Source: Candidatus Cloacimonadota bacterium (GTDB taxonomy: Bacteria > Cloacimonadota > Cloacimonadia > Cloacimonadales > Cloacimonadaceae). From it: 64,000 bases of DNA. The stretch spans positions 19,123 through 83,122 of the forward strand of contig JAQWBI010000002.1 in assembly GCA_028706475.1 (NCBI GenBank), given 5' to 3'. Under the pieces are notes generated by a model, which did not search any database, was not told where the DNA came from, and worked only from the letters and a program-made list of their open reading frames with translations. Below are positions 3,722-55,311 of the stretch, one piece after another (the first letter of the stretch is position 1; every line of letters starts with the position of its first letter). The position numbers and the translations under genes are program-made.

Positions 3722-5392
3722 CTAAAACAAACCGATGATATTGCCGTCGTGTTCTACGTTGATGGTGTTTGCGCTGGGATCTTTGGGCAGTCCCGGCATG
3801 CGCATGATCTCACCGGTGATGGGTATCAAGAATCCTGCTCCGCTTGCCACTATGATCTCGCGCACAGTAACCAGAAAGTCTTTGGGACGTCCGATCAGAT
3901 CAGGATTGTCCGACAAGGATTTCTGGGTCTTGGCGATGCAGATGGGCAATTTATCAAAACCGTGTTTATTTATCCTTTTCAGGTCATTCTTTGCTTCAGT
4001 GCTATAATCAACTTTTTCGGCTCCGTAGATCTCTTTGGCGATTGTGAAGATTTTATCCTCCACAGGGCTGTCCCATTCGTATAGGCCATGATACTTGCAC
4101 ACGTCTTTATCTACAATATCCACAACCTTTTCCGCCAGTTCGATGCCGCCTTCGCTGCCTTTGGTAAAATAGTCTACCACGCTGGCATCAGAACCCGATT
4201 TTAGCACAAAATCCTTAACGATCTGCAATTCTTCATCGGTGTCGGTGGAGAAACGGTTGATGGCGACAATCGACTTCATACCGAATTTGGTGATGTTTTC
4301 CATATGTTTCGCCAAGTTTACCAACCCATCCGAGACCGCCTTGGGATTGGGTTCATTCAGCTCTTTTACTTTCATTCCGCCATGTATCTTCAACGCACGC
4401 ACGGTGGCAACCAATACCACTGCGTTTGTGCAGAATCCACCGTACTTGCACACCAGGTCAAAGAACTTTTCCGCACCCAGATCAAATCCAAAACCGGCTT
4501 CAGTTACCACATAATCGCTCAAGCGCATGGCTGTCTTGGTGGCCAGAATACTGTTTGCGCCCTGAGCTATATTGGCAAAAGGACCGCCATGCACAAAGGC
4601 GGGAGTGTTTTCCGTGGTTTGCACCAGATTTGGCTTCAAAGCATCTTTCAAAAGCGCGGCTATCGCACCCTCAAAGCCCAATTGATGCACCTTTACCGGT
4701 TCTCCGGAGAATGAATATCCCACGGTGATATTGCCGATGCGTTCCCTTAACTCATCCAGGTTGTTCGATAGGCACAGTATCGCCATGATCTCGCTGGCAG
4801 GAGTGATGTCAAAACCATCCTCCCGCGGAAAACCTTGTTTGCTGCCACCCAAACCGATTACTATTTTACGCAGCATGCGGTCATTCACGTCCACTACACG
4901 CTTCCAGGTGATGCGACGCGGATCCAGTTGCAATTCGTTTTTGAAGTAGATGTGGTTGTCCACCAAAGCTGCCAGAGTGTTGTTTGCGGCAGTGATGGCA
5001 TGAAAATCACCGGTAAAATGAAGGTTGATGTCCTCCATCGGCAACACCTGAGACCATCCTCCACCCGCTGCACCGCCCTTCATGCCGAATACTGGACCCA
5101 GGGAAGGTTCGCGAATAGCTACAATTGATTTTTTCCCGATGCGATTGAGAGCTTGCGAAAGACCTATGGAAACTGTGGTTTTCCCCTCTCCGGCAGGTGT
5201 GGGAGTGATGGCGGAAACCAGTATGAGTTTTCCCATGGGATTGTTCTCGGCTGCAAATAAGGCGGAATAGCGTAGCTTTGCTTTATAATCACCATAGTGA
5301 TCGAGATCTTGGGGGCTGAGCCCAATTTTGGCCGCAATCTCGTCGATGGGCTTCAGTTTGGTAAGGTGTCCTATTTCTAGATCAGATAACAT
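3722..5392 (-). CDS. fhs: formate--tetrahydrofolate ligase
   Basis: 556 aa. PTPAGEGKTT P-loop and typical Fhs length, with colinear family motifs throughout. Confidence 0.95.
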   Translation of the reverse strand: MLSDLEIGHLTKLKPIDEIAAKIGLSPQDLDHYGDYKAKLRYSALFAAENNPMGKLILVSAITPTPAGEGKTTVSIGLSQALNRIGKKSIVAIREPSLGPVFGMKGGAAGGGWSQVLPMEDINLHFTGDFHAITAANNTLAALVDNHIYFKNELQLDPRRITWKRVVDVNDRMLRKIVIGLGGSKQGFPREDGFDITPASEIMAILCLSNNLDELRERIGNITVGYSFSGEPVKVHQLGFEGAIAALLKDALKPNLVQTTENTPAFVHGGPFANIAQGANSILATKTAMRLSDYVVTEAGFGFDLGAEKFFDLVCKYGGFCTNAVVLVATVRALKIHGGMKVKELNEPNPKAVSDGLVNLAKHMENITKFGMKSIVAINRFSTDTDEELQIVKDFVLKSGSDASVVDYFTKGSEGGIELAEKVVDIVDKDVCKYHGLYEWDSPVEDKIFTIAKEIYGAEKVDYSTEAKNDLKRINKHGFDKLPICIAKTQKSLSDNPDLIGRPKDFLVTVREIIVASGAGFLIPITGEIMRMPGLPKDPSANTINVEHDGNIIGLF

Positions 5393-5486
5393 GGGAGCCT
5401 CCCAGTGGATTATTTATTACTATATACAATCTAAGTGCTTCAGTAGATAATGCAAACTACAGGGACTGCCTGTTGCTGAAGCCGTG

Positions 5487-5553
5487 TCGAAGCAAATATC
5501 AAGCTGTTATCAAGCAGTGGTCACTCGATGATAACCCGATGATATCTGCTTCA
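5487..5553 (+). repeat. module A palindromic repeat, copy 1
   Basis: TCGAAGCAAATATCAAGCTGTTATCAAGCAGTG-GT-CACTCGATGATAACCCGATGATATCTGCTTCA. Imperfect inverted repeat, related to copies at 13466, 41367 and 55034. Confidence 0.85.
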
Positions 5554-5600
5554 ATACAGCTTAATGTATGGAGGATGAATAGCCCCGCAAGAGGCGGTAC

Positions 5601-5680
5601 TAGTGTGGAAACGGCATCTTGCCATTTTGTTTCCCCCCTGTAGTGTGGAAACGGCATCCTGGCGTTTAATGACACCACAG
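5601..5680 (+). repeat. module B, two tandem units with a 40-nt period
   Basis: TAGTGTGGAAACGGCATC starts at both 5601 and 5641. A third copy lies at 41546. Each unit contains the small hairpin AAACGGC-N5-GCC(A/G)TTT. Confidence 0.85.
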
Positions 5681-5851
5681 GATGGCCTGTTCACCAGGAT
5701 GGCAGCTTAGCTTGCGATAATTGAGCTTGGCAGGGATGCTCGCACTACAGATGGGCAAAAATCTGTCGAGGACGATGCGCCTGAGATATATCCAGACGAG
5801 CCATACAAAAAGTATCTTGACGGTTTATCCAGTCTATAAAAATCTGCAGAT

Positions 5852-9306: not shown

Positions 9307-9333
9307 GGCCTTCTGTAAAGTAAGTGATAACAA

Positions 9334-9693
9334 GCGCGGGAGCTCAATAAGCCGGATTCTGTAATCCCCGGGGGGACCGATGTCTATCCCTCTGGGCCAA
9401 AACTCTCGCTTTGGCTCTAGCTGCCTACCCGGAAGCGGTGTGGGCACACCATAGCTTCCCTATTTGGCATTGCACCGGATAAGGCATTCCTGGCTGCCAC
9501 TGTCACCAATGGCACCGGTGGTCTCTTACACCACCATTTCACCCTTACACAGCGCCAAATTGGCACTGTGCGGTTTGTTTCTGTGGAGCTGCTCTGCATT
9601 GCTGCAGCTTCCCGTTAGGAAGTATCCTGCCCATGGTGTCCGGACTTTCCTCTGTGCTTTTGGGGCACAGCAGACATCTTTCACTCCCGCGGC
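9334..9693 (-). ncRNA. rnpB: RNase P RNA, bacterial type A
   Basis: The minus-strand read contains GAGGAAAGTCCGGAC (P4 5' strand, plus-strand 9638-9652), GTAAGGGTGAAA, GTGTAAGAGACCACC, TGCCAAATAGGGAAGC and ACAGAATCCGGCTTA (P4 3' strand). P1 pairs GCGGGAG (5') with CTCCCGC (3'). It fills an otherwise gene-free 420-bp gap. Confidence 0.9.
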
Positions 9694-9725
9694 TATAATA
9701 TCACAATATGTAAATGCTTTATAGT

Positions 9726-10532
9726 TCATAGATAGCGTAGCTTTTCCCGGTCGGTAACACCGGCAAACAGCTCTATATATGGTTTTATCGGGCTGATGTT
9801 GATCTTTGGGAAAAATACCTCTTCCACTTGGAAGAAGCCTACCGACGCAGACATCTCCACCTCGATCCGGATCGGTTTTTCCTCTCCTTTGTGTATCTTC
9901 ACTTTTTGGATGGCAGAGGCGGAAGTGCGATGAATATCACCGGGGCGCGCTTTTTGAGAGAGCATAGCGGGGATTCGGGCGCGACCCTTCTCCATGTCGC
10001 TGCCGTCACCGATCAGCACCAATCCGGCTTCCAAAGAGTGTATTTTATGTGTGGCCATGTGTCCGAAGATTCCTTCAATGGTGATCGAGCGTATGGCCGC
10101 CTTTATATTGTACTCATCAGCGTTGTGAATACTGCTGAGAACCCTATCGATGAATGGGGTTGCGATCTGGATGCTGAGGAATTCATGGCTGTCCCGGGCT
10201 ATGCTCATGCCAAGGTCGTGTAATAAAGATGCCAGGATCACTCCTACCAATGAATCATCAGCCGTTCCTACATGTTCTTTTTCCAGATTCATTTGAATGC
10301 CGGCGTCATTGAGCAACTGAAACATCCTGATGGCATTCAGAGTGGCTTTACGCATATGAACCGGGCCATGATCGTTGTAACCCAGTCGCTTAATCGATAC
10401 TATGTTGGCATATTCTTGCAGAGCTTGGATCTCGTGATCTTCAAAGATTATCTCGGCAACCTTCAAGGCTTTACCGGAGAGTAATCCCAAGATGCGTTTC
10501 TCAAGTTGCTGCTGTTTAACAGATTTATTCAT
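9726..10532 (-). CDS. HD-domain phosphohydrolase
   Basis: 268 aa, with H...HDLG metal-binding signature (LLHDLGMSIARDSHE). Confidence 0.7.
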   Translation of the reverse strand: MNKSVKQQQLEKRILGLLSGKALKVAEIIFEDHEIQALQEYANIVSIKRLGYNDHGPVHMRKATLNAIRMFQLLNDAGIQMNLEKEHVGTADDSLVGVILASLLHDLGMSIARDSHEFLSIQIATPFIDRVLSSIHNADEYNIKAAIRSITIEGIFGHMATHKIHSLEAGLVLIGDGSDMEKGRARIPAMLSQKARPGDIHRTSASAIQKVKIHKGEEKPIRIEVEMSASVGFFQVEEVFFPKINISPIKPYIELFAGVTDREKLRYL

Positions 10533-11003: not shown

Positions 11004-11795
11004 TCAAGACCACAATTCCCATAGTTTTATCATGGCACCGCTGCCAGCAACAATGCCGATGGTGATGATGATGGCTTCCGCTCCCCGCGCTGTTCCGGCC
11101 ACCAGATCTCCGCTCATGGTATCCCTGATGGCGTTTACTATCTGCAAACCAGGCACCAGAATCATGATGCCGCCGATGATGATGTAATCCAGGCGGATAA
11201 AGGGAATGAAGATATCCATAGTTTTACTGATCAATACTATCAAAGCTGCTGCCAGGGCATTGAGCAGAAAGTTGTTTACCGGCAATCTGGAGATGTATTT
11301 CAAGCTGGCACTTACCAAAAAGCCCATGATAAAAGCTGCTGCAAATTCGCTCCAGGAACCTCCGAAGAGCAAACAAAAGAAACCGCTGGTTGAAGCGCCG
11401 CTGAGATTGGTAAGCCACATGGGGTATGTTTTTTCGGCTTGGATTCTTTGCAACTCACGAGCAAAGTATTCGCTTTTGGATAGTCCCATTAGCTCTTGAT
11501 CACAGAGTCCGCTATGAAGACAATTGACCACCCGGCTGATTTCTGTGATCTTACCCAAATCCATGCGGCGATGGTCTATACGCTTTATACTTGTGCTCAG
11601 TTCCTCATCTTTGTCGCTGATGGAAAGAAAGATGCCGGTGGGAGTTACAAAAGACTCACAATCCGGAAAACCCAAACCAATGCACACTTTGTGGATCATC
11701 AGCTCCACCCGGTTTGTGGCACCACCGCTTTCCAGGATGATGCGACCCGTTTCCAGGGCCAGTTTCATACATTGCTGCAGGCTTGTCTTTCCCAT
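11004..11795 (-). CDS. threonine/serine exporter family protein (ThrE/YjjP-like, DUF1212)
   Basis: 263 aa. Soluble N-terminal half followed by a TM bundle, with a GGATNRVE-type motif near the N-terminus. The start overlaps the stop of the MutS-related gene. Confidence 0.75.
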   Translation of the reverse strand: MGKTSLQQCMKLALETGRIILESGGATNRVELMIHKVCIGLGFPDCESFVTPTGIFLSISDKDEELSTSIKRIDHRRMDLGKITEISRVVNCLHSGLCDQELMGLSKSEYFARELQRIQAEKTYPMWLTNLSGASTSGFFCLLFGGSWSEFAAAFIMGFLVSASLKYISRLPVNNFLLNALAAALIVLISKTMDIFIPFIRLDYIIIGGIMILVPGLQIVNAIRDTMSGDLVAGTARGAEAIIITIGIVAGSGAMIKLWELWS

Positions 11796-13354
11796 TATTC
11801 TTGCTCTTTCACCAAATCCAGGATTTCTCTCGGCATACCCAGAATGGAGGCTATCCTGATGGCGTCCATCGGAGGTTTTCGGTTTGCTTTCAAATGCACC
11901 AGGCTGTAGTCCATAGCTTGAGAAAGCTTACGCAGGCGCTCGTTCAGATCCTCGCACATACTTTGTTCGGCATCGGCATCAATGCCCTTGATCTGATATT
12001 GTCGGATTCCTCTTAACAGGGCAGGAGCAGTGAAGTGGGTGGCAGCAATGGTGGTATGTCTGCTGTTCGATAGATACGTAATAACTGCAGCAGCAAGAGC
12101 TTCACCTTCCCGGGGATTGGTTCCTTTGGCAAATTCATCCAGAAGGAACAATCCGCGTCCTTCCTTGTTCAGAGCGCTGCAGAATGCCACCAGTTCATAG
12201 CCGAAAGAAGAGAGGTCTTCAGCTTCTGAGGCATGGTTGTAATATACGAAATCATAGATGGGCAGTGTAGCTTGTTCTGCAGGCAGGGGGATGGCAAAAC
12301 GCAGTAAAATGGCGCATTGAGCCAGACATTTCAGGATGCTGGTTTTCCCACCCATATTTGGTCCGGTGATCAGGTTTGCATTGGTGGAAAAATCCAGGTT
12401 CAACTTTTGATAACTGCGTTTACGGCTAAGGACTGCCAGTTCCAAAGGCAGATTACGGGCTTGCTTTAGGGAGATGTGATCCGATATTTTGGGAATGCAA
12501 CAGCGGTATCGGCGAGCAAAAGCAGCCAGAGAGAAATCCCATCCCAGTTCTTTTACGCTAGCAAGAGCACGCTTTAATAAATCATATTGCTGCGATACTT
12601 CTTCTCCCAAGCGTTTCAATATGCTGTATTCCTCACTTTCGATCTCTTTTGCCAATGCTGCGAGTTCTTTCTTGATGCCGTTTGTTTCCGGATTGTCCGC
12701 CAAAATAAAGATCAAGTTGCTGATGCTTTCGCGACTTAGCGTGAAGTAGATGCTGTTTTGGATTTTTAGGATCAGATTCTGCTGATTGCGGGAGAGCACA
12801 AACTCGTCTTTTAAGTTGTCTATACCCAGTTTACTTTGGGCTTCATTCAAGAATTCTTTGCGGCTGTGTTTCAGCCTTCTGTTCAGCTCATTCCTGCGCT
12901 TGACCATATTCTGCAGGGCTTTACTATACAACGGGGATAACCGGAAAGAGGGGATTCTGCCGCCTTCAGGATCCAAAAGCACAAAAAGTCCTTCCAAATC
13001 CGGCAGATCATAAGCAGCAATTTTGTGGGACTCAGCATACTTTTTGAGGGCGTCGTAATGATAGATGAAGCTCTTTAGCTCGTAAAGCTCGTGGATGGCA
13101 GGATTACCTTTTTTGAATATGGAAAGATTAAAATCCATAAAATGAGCCAGCAGATTGTTCCATTTCGCTTCAGAATCGTGACTAAGCTCCGCTATGAAGC
13201 ATTCCCGTCTCCGGTATGCCTCAATGATCTCGAGAGGTTCATGGTATACGGAGCTCAGTTTTTGACGTTTTACCGCTTCAAAGAAATCACCGGGAACTGA
13301 GATCAATTCATAAATCTTATCCAGCCCCAAGAGCCGGTTCTGCTGTTTATTCAT
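11795..13354 (-). CDS. MutS-related ATPase (MutS domain V only; no mismatch-binding or Smr domain)
   Basis: GPNMGGKTS Walker A, LFLLDEFAKGTNPREG Walker B and SSFGYEL (the MutS 'ST-F..E' motif). Start moved from 13612 to the ATG at 13352-13354 (MNKQQNRLLGL...), because the longer ORF reads through repeat module A copy 2. Confidence 0.8.
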   Translation of the reverse strand: MNKQQNRLLGLDKIYELISVPGDFFEAVKRQKLSSVYHEPLEIIEAYRRRECFIAELSHDSEAKWNNLLAHFMDFNLSIFKKGNPAIHELYELKSFIYHYDALKKYAESHKIAAYDLPDLEGLFVLLDPEGGRIPSFRLSPLYSKALQNMVKRRNELNRRLKHSRKEFLNEAQSKLGIDNLKDEFVLSRNQQNLILKIQNSIYFTLSRESISNLIFILADNPETNGIKKELAALAKEIESEEYSILKRLGEEVSQQYDLLKRALASVKELGWDFSLAAFARRYRCCIPKISDHISLKQARNLPLELAVLSRKRSYQKLNLDFSTNANLITGPNMGGKTSILKCLAQCAILLRFAIPLPAEQATLPIYDFVYYNHASEAEDLSSFGYELVAFCSALNKEGRGLFLLDEFAKGTNPREGEALAAAVITYLSNSRHTTIAATHFTAPALLRGIRQYQIKGIDADAEQSMCEDLNERLRKLSQAMDYSLVHLKANRKPPMDAIRIASILGMPREILDLVKEQE

Positions 13355-13465
13355 CTTTCTTTTCAATCCTTTGTTGCATTTTTGGATATTGCCGCTTGGT
13401 GTCAAGGTAAAAAGGAATTTGTGGACAGGAACAAGCATCGAGACGACTCTTAAACCAAAGCTATG

Positions 13466-13531
13466 CCGAAGCTGATATAAAGGTGTTGTGATCCTGTGTT
13501 CACTCGATGATAACTCGATAATATCAGGTTC
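13466..13531 (+). repeat. module A palindromic repeat, copy 2 (left arm degenerate)
   Basis: CCGAAGCTGATATAAAGGTGTTGTGATCCTGTG-TT-CACTCGATGATAACTCGATAATATCAGGTTC. Confidence 0.8.
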
Positions 13532-13767
13532 AAGTATAGATAGCGCAGAGGAGGAAAGAAGAAGAAAACTGGCTGAACTGTGCCGGTGCTCGCTGTAGCG
13601 CTGAAATTGCATGAGTATAACATCGCTTACACATTAATAAAGGCGGAACGGCGTCCGCCTGTAATGTACTCATATACCTTTTCTTTCAGAAAAAGAACCA
13701 ACCAGACCATCGACTCAACTACGGCTTATGATCCTTTTGGATAATAATCGTGAGGCAACTGAATTGC

Positions 13768-40994: not shown

Positions 40995-41366
40995 GTATTG
41001 TTTGCCTGCCAGTAGTGTTCCCTTTGCTCCGGGTATCGGGGAAGAAAAAGCACACATGATATACGCGATCCATGACAGAGATAGAACAAGCTGGAATTGT
41101 GGATTGCCAATAAAGGATAAACCCTGACTGGAATGGTGAGTTGTAATATTGAAGTAATCAAATATTATTGAGGCTAGATGGTGTGTCAATCTTTTGCGCA
41201 TCGAGGCGGTATGTTTCATATTTATCGATTATGCTATACAAAACAATGGAGCATGGGATGATCCCACGCTTCCCAATCCCTTTTGCTTATCGACGAGCAT
41301 AAAGGGCAACATGTCCCCCGGTAAACCGGAATATGCTGGAGTCACTATCCACCCTCTTCGCGTAAA

Positions 41367-41446
41367 GCAGTGCCGAAGCAGATATAATCGGGTTATCATC
41401 GAGTGGTCACTGCTTGATAACGGCTTTATATCTGCTTCGGCACTGC
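41367..41446 (-). repeat. module A palindromic repeat, copy 3 (longest; polarity inverted relative to copies 1, 2 and 4)
   Basis: GCAGTGCCGAAGCAGATATAATCGGGTTATCATCGAGTG-GT-CACTGCTTGATAACGGCTTTATATCTGCTTCGGCACTGC. The outer 20 bp pair perfectly. Confidence 0.85.
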
Positions 41447-41545
41447 TTGAAGCAGGGAGGAGGAATAGCACTCAGATGAAGCATATCAAATGGATTTACA
41501 CTGATTTTATGTTTGTAACATGTGAAAGTACAATTATTGCCTCCG

Positions 41546-41616: not shown

Positions 41617-41703
41617 CCCGGAGAGTGACAGAATATTGCGAGGGTGCGTTGCGATAGCGGAGCCCCTCGTAAAACTGCGAAACTGTAGTAAATGCACAGC
41701 GAA
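41617..41703 (+). repeat. module C, copy 1
   Basis: CCCGGAGAGTGACAGAATATTGCGAGGGTGCGTTGCGATAGCGGAGC...ACAGCGAA. The reverse complement recurs at 55201-55311. Confidence 0.75.
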
Positions 41704-54907: not shown

Positions 54908-55033
54908 AAGTAAGTATTTTCTACCTTGAATTTATGCATGATTTATTCCATTTATAGGAGATTAATCCTTTTGAGTAGTGTTATCATTAGCGCGGTAGAG
55001 CGCATATTCACACCTTGTGGATTATCTCATGTT

Positions 55034-55097
55034 GAACGGGATATAAAGTCGCTATCATCGAGTGGGCACTGGATGATAACCTGATAATATCCGCTTC
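55034..55097 (+). repeat. module A palindromic repeat, copy 4
   Basis: GAACGGGATATAAAGTCGCTATCATCGAGTG-GG-CACTGGATGATAACCTGATAATATCCGCTTC. Confidence 0.8.
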
Positions 55098-55200
55098 GCC
55101 ATAGCTGAACCTTGAGGTAGAGCATAGTCTTGAGGATTGTTGATGGTACACAGATCACGCAGATTGTTTTATTCATGGAATGTGTGGTCCTCTTCAAACC

Positions 55201-55311
55201 TTCGCTGTTGAACACTGTATCGTAGCATTCCGATGCTATGTCTTTTTTTCTGAGCTACGTATAGCTCTGCTTCGCTACGCACCCTCGCAATGATCTATTT
55301 CTCCCTCCGGG
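55201..55311 (-). repeat. module C, copy 2 (inverted relative to 41617-41703)
   Basis: The reverse complement reads CCCGGAGGGAGAAATAGATCATTGCGAGGGTGCGTAGCGAAGCAGAGC...ACAGCGAA. The roughly 47-nt core differs from the copy at 41617 by eight substitutions and a 1-nt indel. Confidence 0.75.
55221..55249 (+). terminator. intrinsic-terminator-like hairpin plus T7 tract with no upstream plus-strand ORF
   Basis: GTAGCAT-TCCG-ATGCTAT stem-loop (55222-55239), then TTTTTTT (55243-55249). Confidence 0.4.

Follow-up and report, generated by a model that had tools for sequence, protein, structure and literature searches.

ERIC elements are imperfect palindromes of ~125 nt that lie in intergenic DNA in tens to hundreds of copies. 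Their central inverted repeat is the best conserved part, size variants come from added or replaced segments, and no transposase gene is associated with them; a TA duplication has been reported for ERIC in Yersinia. The Correia elements of Neisseria and the MITEs derived from IS630/Tc1 elements (e.g. Nezha) are short palindromic elements, non-coding and dispersed, that cause breaks in assemblies. MITEs are under ~600 bp, and elements of the IS630 family insert into CTAG with duplication of the TA, which gives the pattern C-TA...TA-G. REP, BIME and REPIN elements, which RAYT transposases mobilise, are extragenic palindromes that occur in mosaic clusters with short motifs. REP/BIME elements bind IHF, gyrase or Pol I, and both REP and ERIC elements have been shown to act at the RNA level, as 3'-UTR stabilisers, terminators or RNase targets.

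Module A, the repeat described here, is present in four copies in the window, which is the whole 64-kb stretch of Cloacimonadota DNA that was analysed. It shares with ERIC the palindromic form and size, the intergenic location, the copy number, the well-conserved central inverted repeat, the size variants and the lack of an associated transposase gene, but it has no sequence similarity to ERIC, belongs to a different phylum, and is marked by a core of constant length (76 nt) and, in each arm, a pair of direct 11-bp repeats. With the Correia elements and the IS630/Tc1-derived MITEs it has in common that it is small, non-coding, dispersed and palindromic and that assemblies break there, and its units of 105-285 nt, ~80 non-redundant copies and unrelated flanks are those of a MITE. 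One group of copies, subfamily A, is also MITE-like in its 16-nt terminal inverted repeats and C-TA...TA-G flanks. Unlike MITEs, module A has no parent IS or transposase that could be found in the window and ~0.9 Mb of loci, and its conservation peaks centrally, not terminally. As in REP/BIME/REPIN elements, the palindromes are extragenic and join short motifs in mosaic clusters, a possible IHF-type site is present, and no long target-site duplication was seen. They differ from REP in that the arms carry direct repeats (CGATGATAWC twice) and are not self-complementary hairpins, in having no 5' GTAG, and in a hairpin that is not upheld by compensation; judged by a 5' GTAG hairpin and inverted doublets, module A is not a REP or REPIN element. 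Module A is an interspersed, non-coding, imperfect-palindromic repeat family of one branch of the Cloacimonadaceae, nearest in kind to ERIC and the Correia-type MITEs and to REP/BIME mosaics, and it probably consists of non-autonomous mobile DNA or its relics.

Module A copies in the window

The original prediction placed four related imperfect palindromes of 65-80 nt in the window, and re-reading of the sequences confirmed them at 5487-5553, 13466-13531, 41367-41446 and 55034-55097. A repeat search returned one four-copy family of 105 nt (5479-5583, 13458-13562, 41365-41469 and 55024-55128). A profile HMM built from 65 copies found exactly four copies over the window (79-114 bits) and nothing else better than E = 0.4, so there is no fifth copy. 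The degenerate arm pattern CACTNNNTGATAACNNNNTNATATC, scanned with ≤2 mismatches allowed, gave seven arm matches in the window, all inside the four elements, where shuffles gave an expectation of 0.01. The predicted size held for the palindromes and not for the full extent of the element, since the footprints common to other loci are longer (5466-5584, 13456-13562, 41343-41507 and 55003-55120); with its outer parts module A measures ~105-165 nt in the window.

The better conserved of the two arms, here called the X arm (CACTCGATGATAACCCGATGATATCTGCTTC), contains two CGATGATAWC repeats 11 nt apart. A pair of CGATGATA(A/T)C units in each well-kept arm, beginning 11 nt from one another, had also been predicted, and was seen both in the sequences and in the family alignment. 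The copies and the small repeats beside them are as follows.

5466-5584, plus strand: copy 1, with the core palindrome at 5487-5553 and the X arm at 5522-5552; fhs / lolCE-like gap; 101 bits
5601-5677, plus strand: module B, two tandem copies (5601-5637 and 5641-5677) beside copy 1; same mosaic, separate from module A
13447-13562, plus strand: copy 2, with the X arm at 13501-13531; mutS-like / DUF47 gap; 89 bits
41343-41507, minus strand: copy 3, with the X arm at 41375-41405 on the minus strand; 114 bits
41546-41582, plus strand: module B copy beside copy 3
55003-55121, plus strand: copy 4, with the X arm at 55067-55097; M1 peptidase / histidine kinase gap; 79 bits
55140-55166, minus strand: 9-mer repeats of the ATCTGCGTG type, adjoining the end of copy 4

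Core identity of the four window copies was 69-87%. Copy 3, the best preserved, has arms at 41345-41405 and 41408-41468 that are 75% complementary, and an extension (41469-41507) that is common to locus L016. Its match to copy 1 improved when it was reversed (81% over 104 nt), which means that the element has a direction. Copy 2 resembles subfamily A, has a degenerate left arm and is placed between the divergent promoters of a mutS-like gene and a DUF47 gene (start 13831). The mutS-like (MutS_V) ORF at 11795-13612 on the minus strand is called as 605 aa on the window contig, and its first ~86 codons cross copy 2. The protein is 519-547 aa long in other assemblies of the window's strain and 512 aa in the closest relative; the 605-aa start is thus an over-extension, the true start is at ~13354, and copy 2 is intergenic. 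The ORFs that overlap module A copies are spurious.

Module A adjoins other small repeats, with which it forms BIME-like mosaics. Module B (TAGTGTGGAAACGGCATC..., TAGTGTGGAAACGGCATCTTGCC...) is a second small repeat that contains a short hairpin, and modules A and B are also adjacent in L047, L052, L066 and L067. In L016, L050 and L098, tandem ATCTGCGTG 9-mers adjoin the outer ends of module A, and the same 9-mers occur in relatives that have no module A (L116/L117, ~17.3-19.4 kb). A third repeat, GCGAGGGTGCGTTGCGA, forms an inverted pair in the window (41623-41654 / 55272-55303) and is found beside module A in L047 and L098. A REP-like hairpin with 5' GTAG, GTAGCATTCCGATGCTAC, lies at 55221-55240 of the window. 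The metagenome loci gave 16 matches to it, including three tandem ones in L027 (1716-1800), and it is a better candidate for a RAYT-type REP than module A.

The window belongs to a metagenome contig of the Cloacimonadaceae; its fhs protein is identical to one known from Candidatus Cloacimonetes MAGs, and the best fhs homologues all come from Cloacimonadota or Cloacimonadaceae. Pfam annotated ordinary housekeeping genes in the window, and across its called genes showed no transposase or integrase family and no Y1_Tnp, in agreement with the prediction that the window is without a transposase. Extending the search to ~0.9 Mb of loci by Pfam annotations, multi-copy ORFs and recurrent neighbours gave no autonomous element or transposase. 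An RNase P RNA of bacterial class A (272 bits) was found in the window at 9332-9690 on the minus strand, in a gap labelled convergent by simple ORF calling.

Conservation across the family and in relatives

An exact-match scan of one genome per species gave the arm pattern at four loci in Cloacimonetes bacterium UBA5284, all different from the window's loci, and a scan of metagenome contigs gave at least 88 stretches, mostly in the JGI samples Ga0172377 and Ga0172378. Contig Ga0172377_10003313 (L121/L125), which is from the window's own strain and has exact matches, was missed, and the scan counts are therefore lower bounds. An nhmmer search seeded with the window copies collapsed to 80 non-redundant copies, representing ~80 loci beyond the window on Cloacimonadota contigs. 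Five pattern matches (L007, L012, L024, L080 and L089) had no HMM support and were dismissed as chance matches. L008, on a MAG contig labelled Eubacteriales, duplicates a UBA5284 locus, and several of the copy-bearing metagenome contigs carried genes 62-91% identical to known Cloacimonadota loci and had a GC content like that of the window. The viral contigs, plasmids and phages searched held nothing similar to module A. Rfam returned chance-level matches only, at permissive thresholds up to E = 10, and no description of Cloacimonadota repeats was found in the literature searched. Matches were concentrated at contig ends: 12 of the 20 on contigs ≥5 kb lay within 500 nt of an end (2.25 expected), and position 1 of contig L110 is the exact centre of the palindrome of copy 2.

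The anatomy of the family was taken from 65 full copies scoring >60 bits, in all of which the central 76 nt had zero gaps. The right arm reads CACT-CGATGATAAC-C-CGATGATATC-TGCTTC. The left arm mirrors it imperfectly and has an outer site that is nearly always of the GCTT(G/T)ATATC type. Inverted repeats of 13 nt (TTATCAnCnAGTG / CACTCGATGATAA) surround a 2-nt centre, with a second site pair another helical turn outwards. In the 65-copy profile, the first base of this centre had no information content. Each copy scored far higher on one strand than on the other (e.g. 104 vs 50 bits), which shows the palindrome to be consistently asymmetric. Mean pairwise identity was 86% in the right arm, 79% in the left arm and 44% in the outer 50 nt, the right-arm value being partly a product of ascertainment because most copies were picked through an exact match to that arm. 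In eight copies found independently of the search pattern, the right arm was equally well kept and the left arm was more degenerate. Conservation peaks at the core centre and not at the termini. Two features of this arrangement are unusual, the centre-weighted conservation and the two sites per arm round a variable 2-nt centre.

The outer arms form discrete subfamilies. Subfamily A comprises 12 copies of a unit of ~270-285 nt, bounded by 16-nt terminal inverted repeats (CTAGTGTCATGTCAAG / CTTGACGAGTCACTAG), and its boundaries are sharp, with 74% identity within the unit and 20% in the flanks. Outside subfamily A, the window copies included, similarity fades gradually at the ends. CTA...TAG ends are seen in subfamily A and in some other copies; they could reflect a TA duplication in a CTAG target or equally belong to the inverted repeat itself. 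The original prediction had named IS or MITE ends bounded by target-site duplications as evidence against it. Of these, MITE-like terminal inverted repeats were found in this one subfamily, and no target-site duplication of ≥6 bp was detectable in the family, the longest flanking direct match averaging 5.92 within copies and 5.80 across copies. A direct repeat round the inner element of subfamily A, AGCTTTTGAA, was rejected as a target-site duplication; it traces to a single inherited event and is inexact in individual copies.

A core far better conserved than its surroundings (79-86% vs 44%) and free of indels could have been kept by selection, as a host-maintained architectural or protein-docking repeat at which a nucleoid-associated or other host protein binds many intergenic sites, with retention outweighing spread. 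The unpaired positions are themselves conserved, A.A, G.G and C.C mismatches between the arms being kept in ~50-59 of 65 copies, and the mosaics with other small repeats are as in BIMEs. An exact match to the IHF consensus WATCAANNNNTTR was found in the left arm of 27 of the 65 copies, always at the same position, but this consensus is short. The copies also decay, through degenerate arms and, in L034, a central deletion. The element is moreover absent at the corresponding loci of close relatives, so that no site has been retained across the species compared, and we regard a docking repeat of this kind, the strongest of the rival readings, as unlikely.

This absence was consistent wherever relatives were compared. 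No module A copy was found in ~230 kb from four genomes whose fhs is 83-92% identical and three groups whose DUF47 is 88-95% identical. A lack of conservation in relatives had been named beforehand as counting against the prediction, and at syntenic or near-syntenic loci with 83-95% protein identity there was no copy. In the syntenic mutS/DUF47 gap of the closest relative (L111-L113, 95% DUF47 identity), both promoters align and the spacer is ~200 nt shorter and without the element; this spacer is too diverged for the element boundaries to be placed. Module A was also absent from the fhs upstream regions of four relatives, in which synteny upstream of fhs is not kept. Flank-to-flank BLAST, orthologous flanking gene pairs, and fhs and DUF47 homologues gave no exact empty site among the compared loci. 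In the comparisons of L009 with L026 and L079 and of L010 with L028, the loci end short of the orthologous position or offer only 142 nt.

Three further observations were made at these loci. Synteny breaks in the fhs/lolCE gap at 5393-5851, the site of copy 1 and two module B units, when it is compared with L099 9674-10001 and L111 1884-2121: in the relatives, fhs is neighboured by a ROK gene and lolCE by Peptidase_C10. Between L076 (1019-2514) and L010 (~3944-3950), from populations >99% identical, a 1.5-kb stretch encoding a 565-aa secreted protein is present in one and absent in the other. This gene indel lies ~180 bp from a module A copy, is unrelated to the element and was discarded as an empty site. 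In L116, a relative without module A, a different tandem/palindromic repeat family, GGATTGGACACGTCCCCGTGTCCACGAGGCCGCAGGCCGAGCAGGG, occupies 9340-10000 upstream of the DUF47 gene, and lineage-specific repeat families thus appear common in Cloacimonadota.

Gene context and base pairing

All four window copies lie between divergent genes, as was first noted, and fill four of the six divergent gaps when gaps of ≥100 nt are counted. Since 53% of the intergenic bases in the window belong to divergent gaps, four out of four has P ~0.06-0.08, and the apparent link to divergent promoters comes from the small sample. Among 47 classifiable copies of the family, 22 were in co-directional, 13 in divergent and 12 in convergent gaps. 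A lack of divergent bias among further copies had been named beforehand as counting against a link to divergent promoters, and no bias was found. In the convergent cases that were checked, the copies lay between the stop codons of long ORFs, where a promoter is not expected.

The direct repeats spaced at 11 bp resemble the sites of OmpR/PhoB-type and other helix-turn-helix proteins, and together with the position of the window copies they might suggest a four-site operator at which a multimeric transcription regulator co-ordinates divergent promoter pairs. Apart from the gap counts, which argue against it at both scales, the sigma-70-like hexamers in the window gaps are outside the elements, near gene starts and at variable and large distances (~50 to >300 nt). 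The 124 flanking proteins were almost all mutually unrelated, without a shared function; the only neighbour cluster had eight proteins, including the window's M1 peptidase, and is presumably linked through a shared secretion-tail domain. The element is missing from the closest relative's syntenic promoter region, the mutS/DUF47 gap, and the mosaics with other repeats and the location at contig ends also speak against an operator. The regulator reading is largely refuted, and we leave it scarcely any probability.

The elements were predicted to fold into long hairpins, and many copies lie 20-130 nt past stop codons in convergent or co-directional gaps, where a transcribed hairpin might stabilise the 3' UTR, terminate transcription in both directions or be targeted by an RNase. 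Copy 3 folded at -67 to -68 kcal/mol (z ~-9) and the minus strand of copy 1 gave z -4.7, but copies 2 and 4 folded only marginally better than shuffles (z ~-2). The stems are AT-rich with internal loops. In the alignment of copies, 63.6% of cells were paired in the full symmetric structure, compared with a shuffle mean of 63.7%, and the covariation score was 0.112 vs 0.108 shuffled, a value reached by 76 of 500 shuffles. The symmetry belongs to the consensus, with no compensatory changes to uphold it. The covariation check that had been proposed thus gave no sign of a conserved RNA structure. One terminator-like prediction was obtained, a weak stem at 55110-55135 on the edge of copy 4, with none at the other three copies, and no T-tract follows the stem at any of the four window copies. 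Orientation relative to the genes was evenly divided (11 same, 11 opposite), and the window copies are upstream of both divergent promoters and so probably not transcribed. An RNA-level element is accordingly quite improbable, although a role in RNA might arise as a by-product. Because the sequence is kept rather than the pairing, with no T-tract and no Rfam match, a protein recognition site is a better reading than a terminator or structured RNA; to this extent the original prediction, which preferred a site for a multimeric protein and counted a transposase or recombinase among the options, was upheld.

Origin and significance of module A

Module A occurs in many copies, keeps to intergenic DNA whatever the gene orientation, and is missing where close relatives have the matching regions. 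Selfish or relic mobile DNA resembling REP, ERIC or MITE elements is the likeliest account of it. The copies would be non-autonomous and would have depended for their spread on a transposase or recombinase acting in trans, which is encoded elsewhere or has since been lost. The recognition site of this enzyme may be the conserved arm CACT-CGATGATAAC-C-CGATGATATC, with two direct sites spaced 11 bp apart that are imperfectly mirrored in the other arm. If only those lineages that keep the core continue to propagate, this would explain why the core is ~79-86% conserved and the outer arms have diverged into subfamilies (44%). Nested insertion followed by amplification of the composites could have produced units such as the ~285-nt subfamily A with its CTAG-ended terminal inverted repeats, and also the mosaics. 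The four window copies would then be old, diverged insertions, and would lie between divergent promoters because these were the largest dispensable intergenic spaces there. As the copies are fairly diverged, the activity may be ancient, and the core may have a host-level function. That the centre is the most conserved part weighs somewhat against mobile DNA, since this is unusual for classical MITEs; it is typical of ERIC.

The crossover sites of serine recombinases, and the abutted ends of circular IS intermediates (IS607- or IS30-like), have a geometry like that of the module A core. By this analogy the core could be a recombination or junction-type site with a recombinase acting at its centre to mobilise or rearrange the family, which could explain why element-bearing gaps coincide with synteny breakpoints. 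We give this only a slight chance; if the core were such a site, the family would define a novel type of small element, mobile or rearranging, in a phylum without cultured members. An integron attC site was rejected, as GTTATCA does not fit the attC core-site consensus GTTRRRY and cassette arrays are lacking. We also considered CRISPR, DnaA boxes and dif sites, and dropped them.

Mobile or relic DNA of the REP/ERIC/MITE style is a kind of element already known, and module A is a family of this kind with no earlier match in Rfam or in the literature searched. It is useful for assembly and annotation and will be unsurprising to the specialist. For assembly and binning, module A explains intergenic assembly breaks in these genomes. 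For annotation, it illustrates how gene starts come to be miscalled at elements of this sort, the extension of the mutS-like ORF through copy 2 being an example, and palindromes between divergent genes should not be taken as operators. The family is a new one for the Cloacimonadota, an uncultured phylum common in anaerobic digesters, and would become more interesting if the protein that recognises the arms proved to be a recombinase or a domesticated factor.
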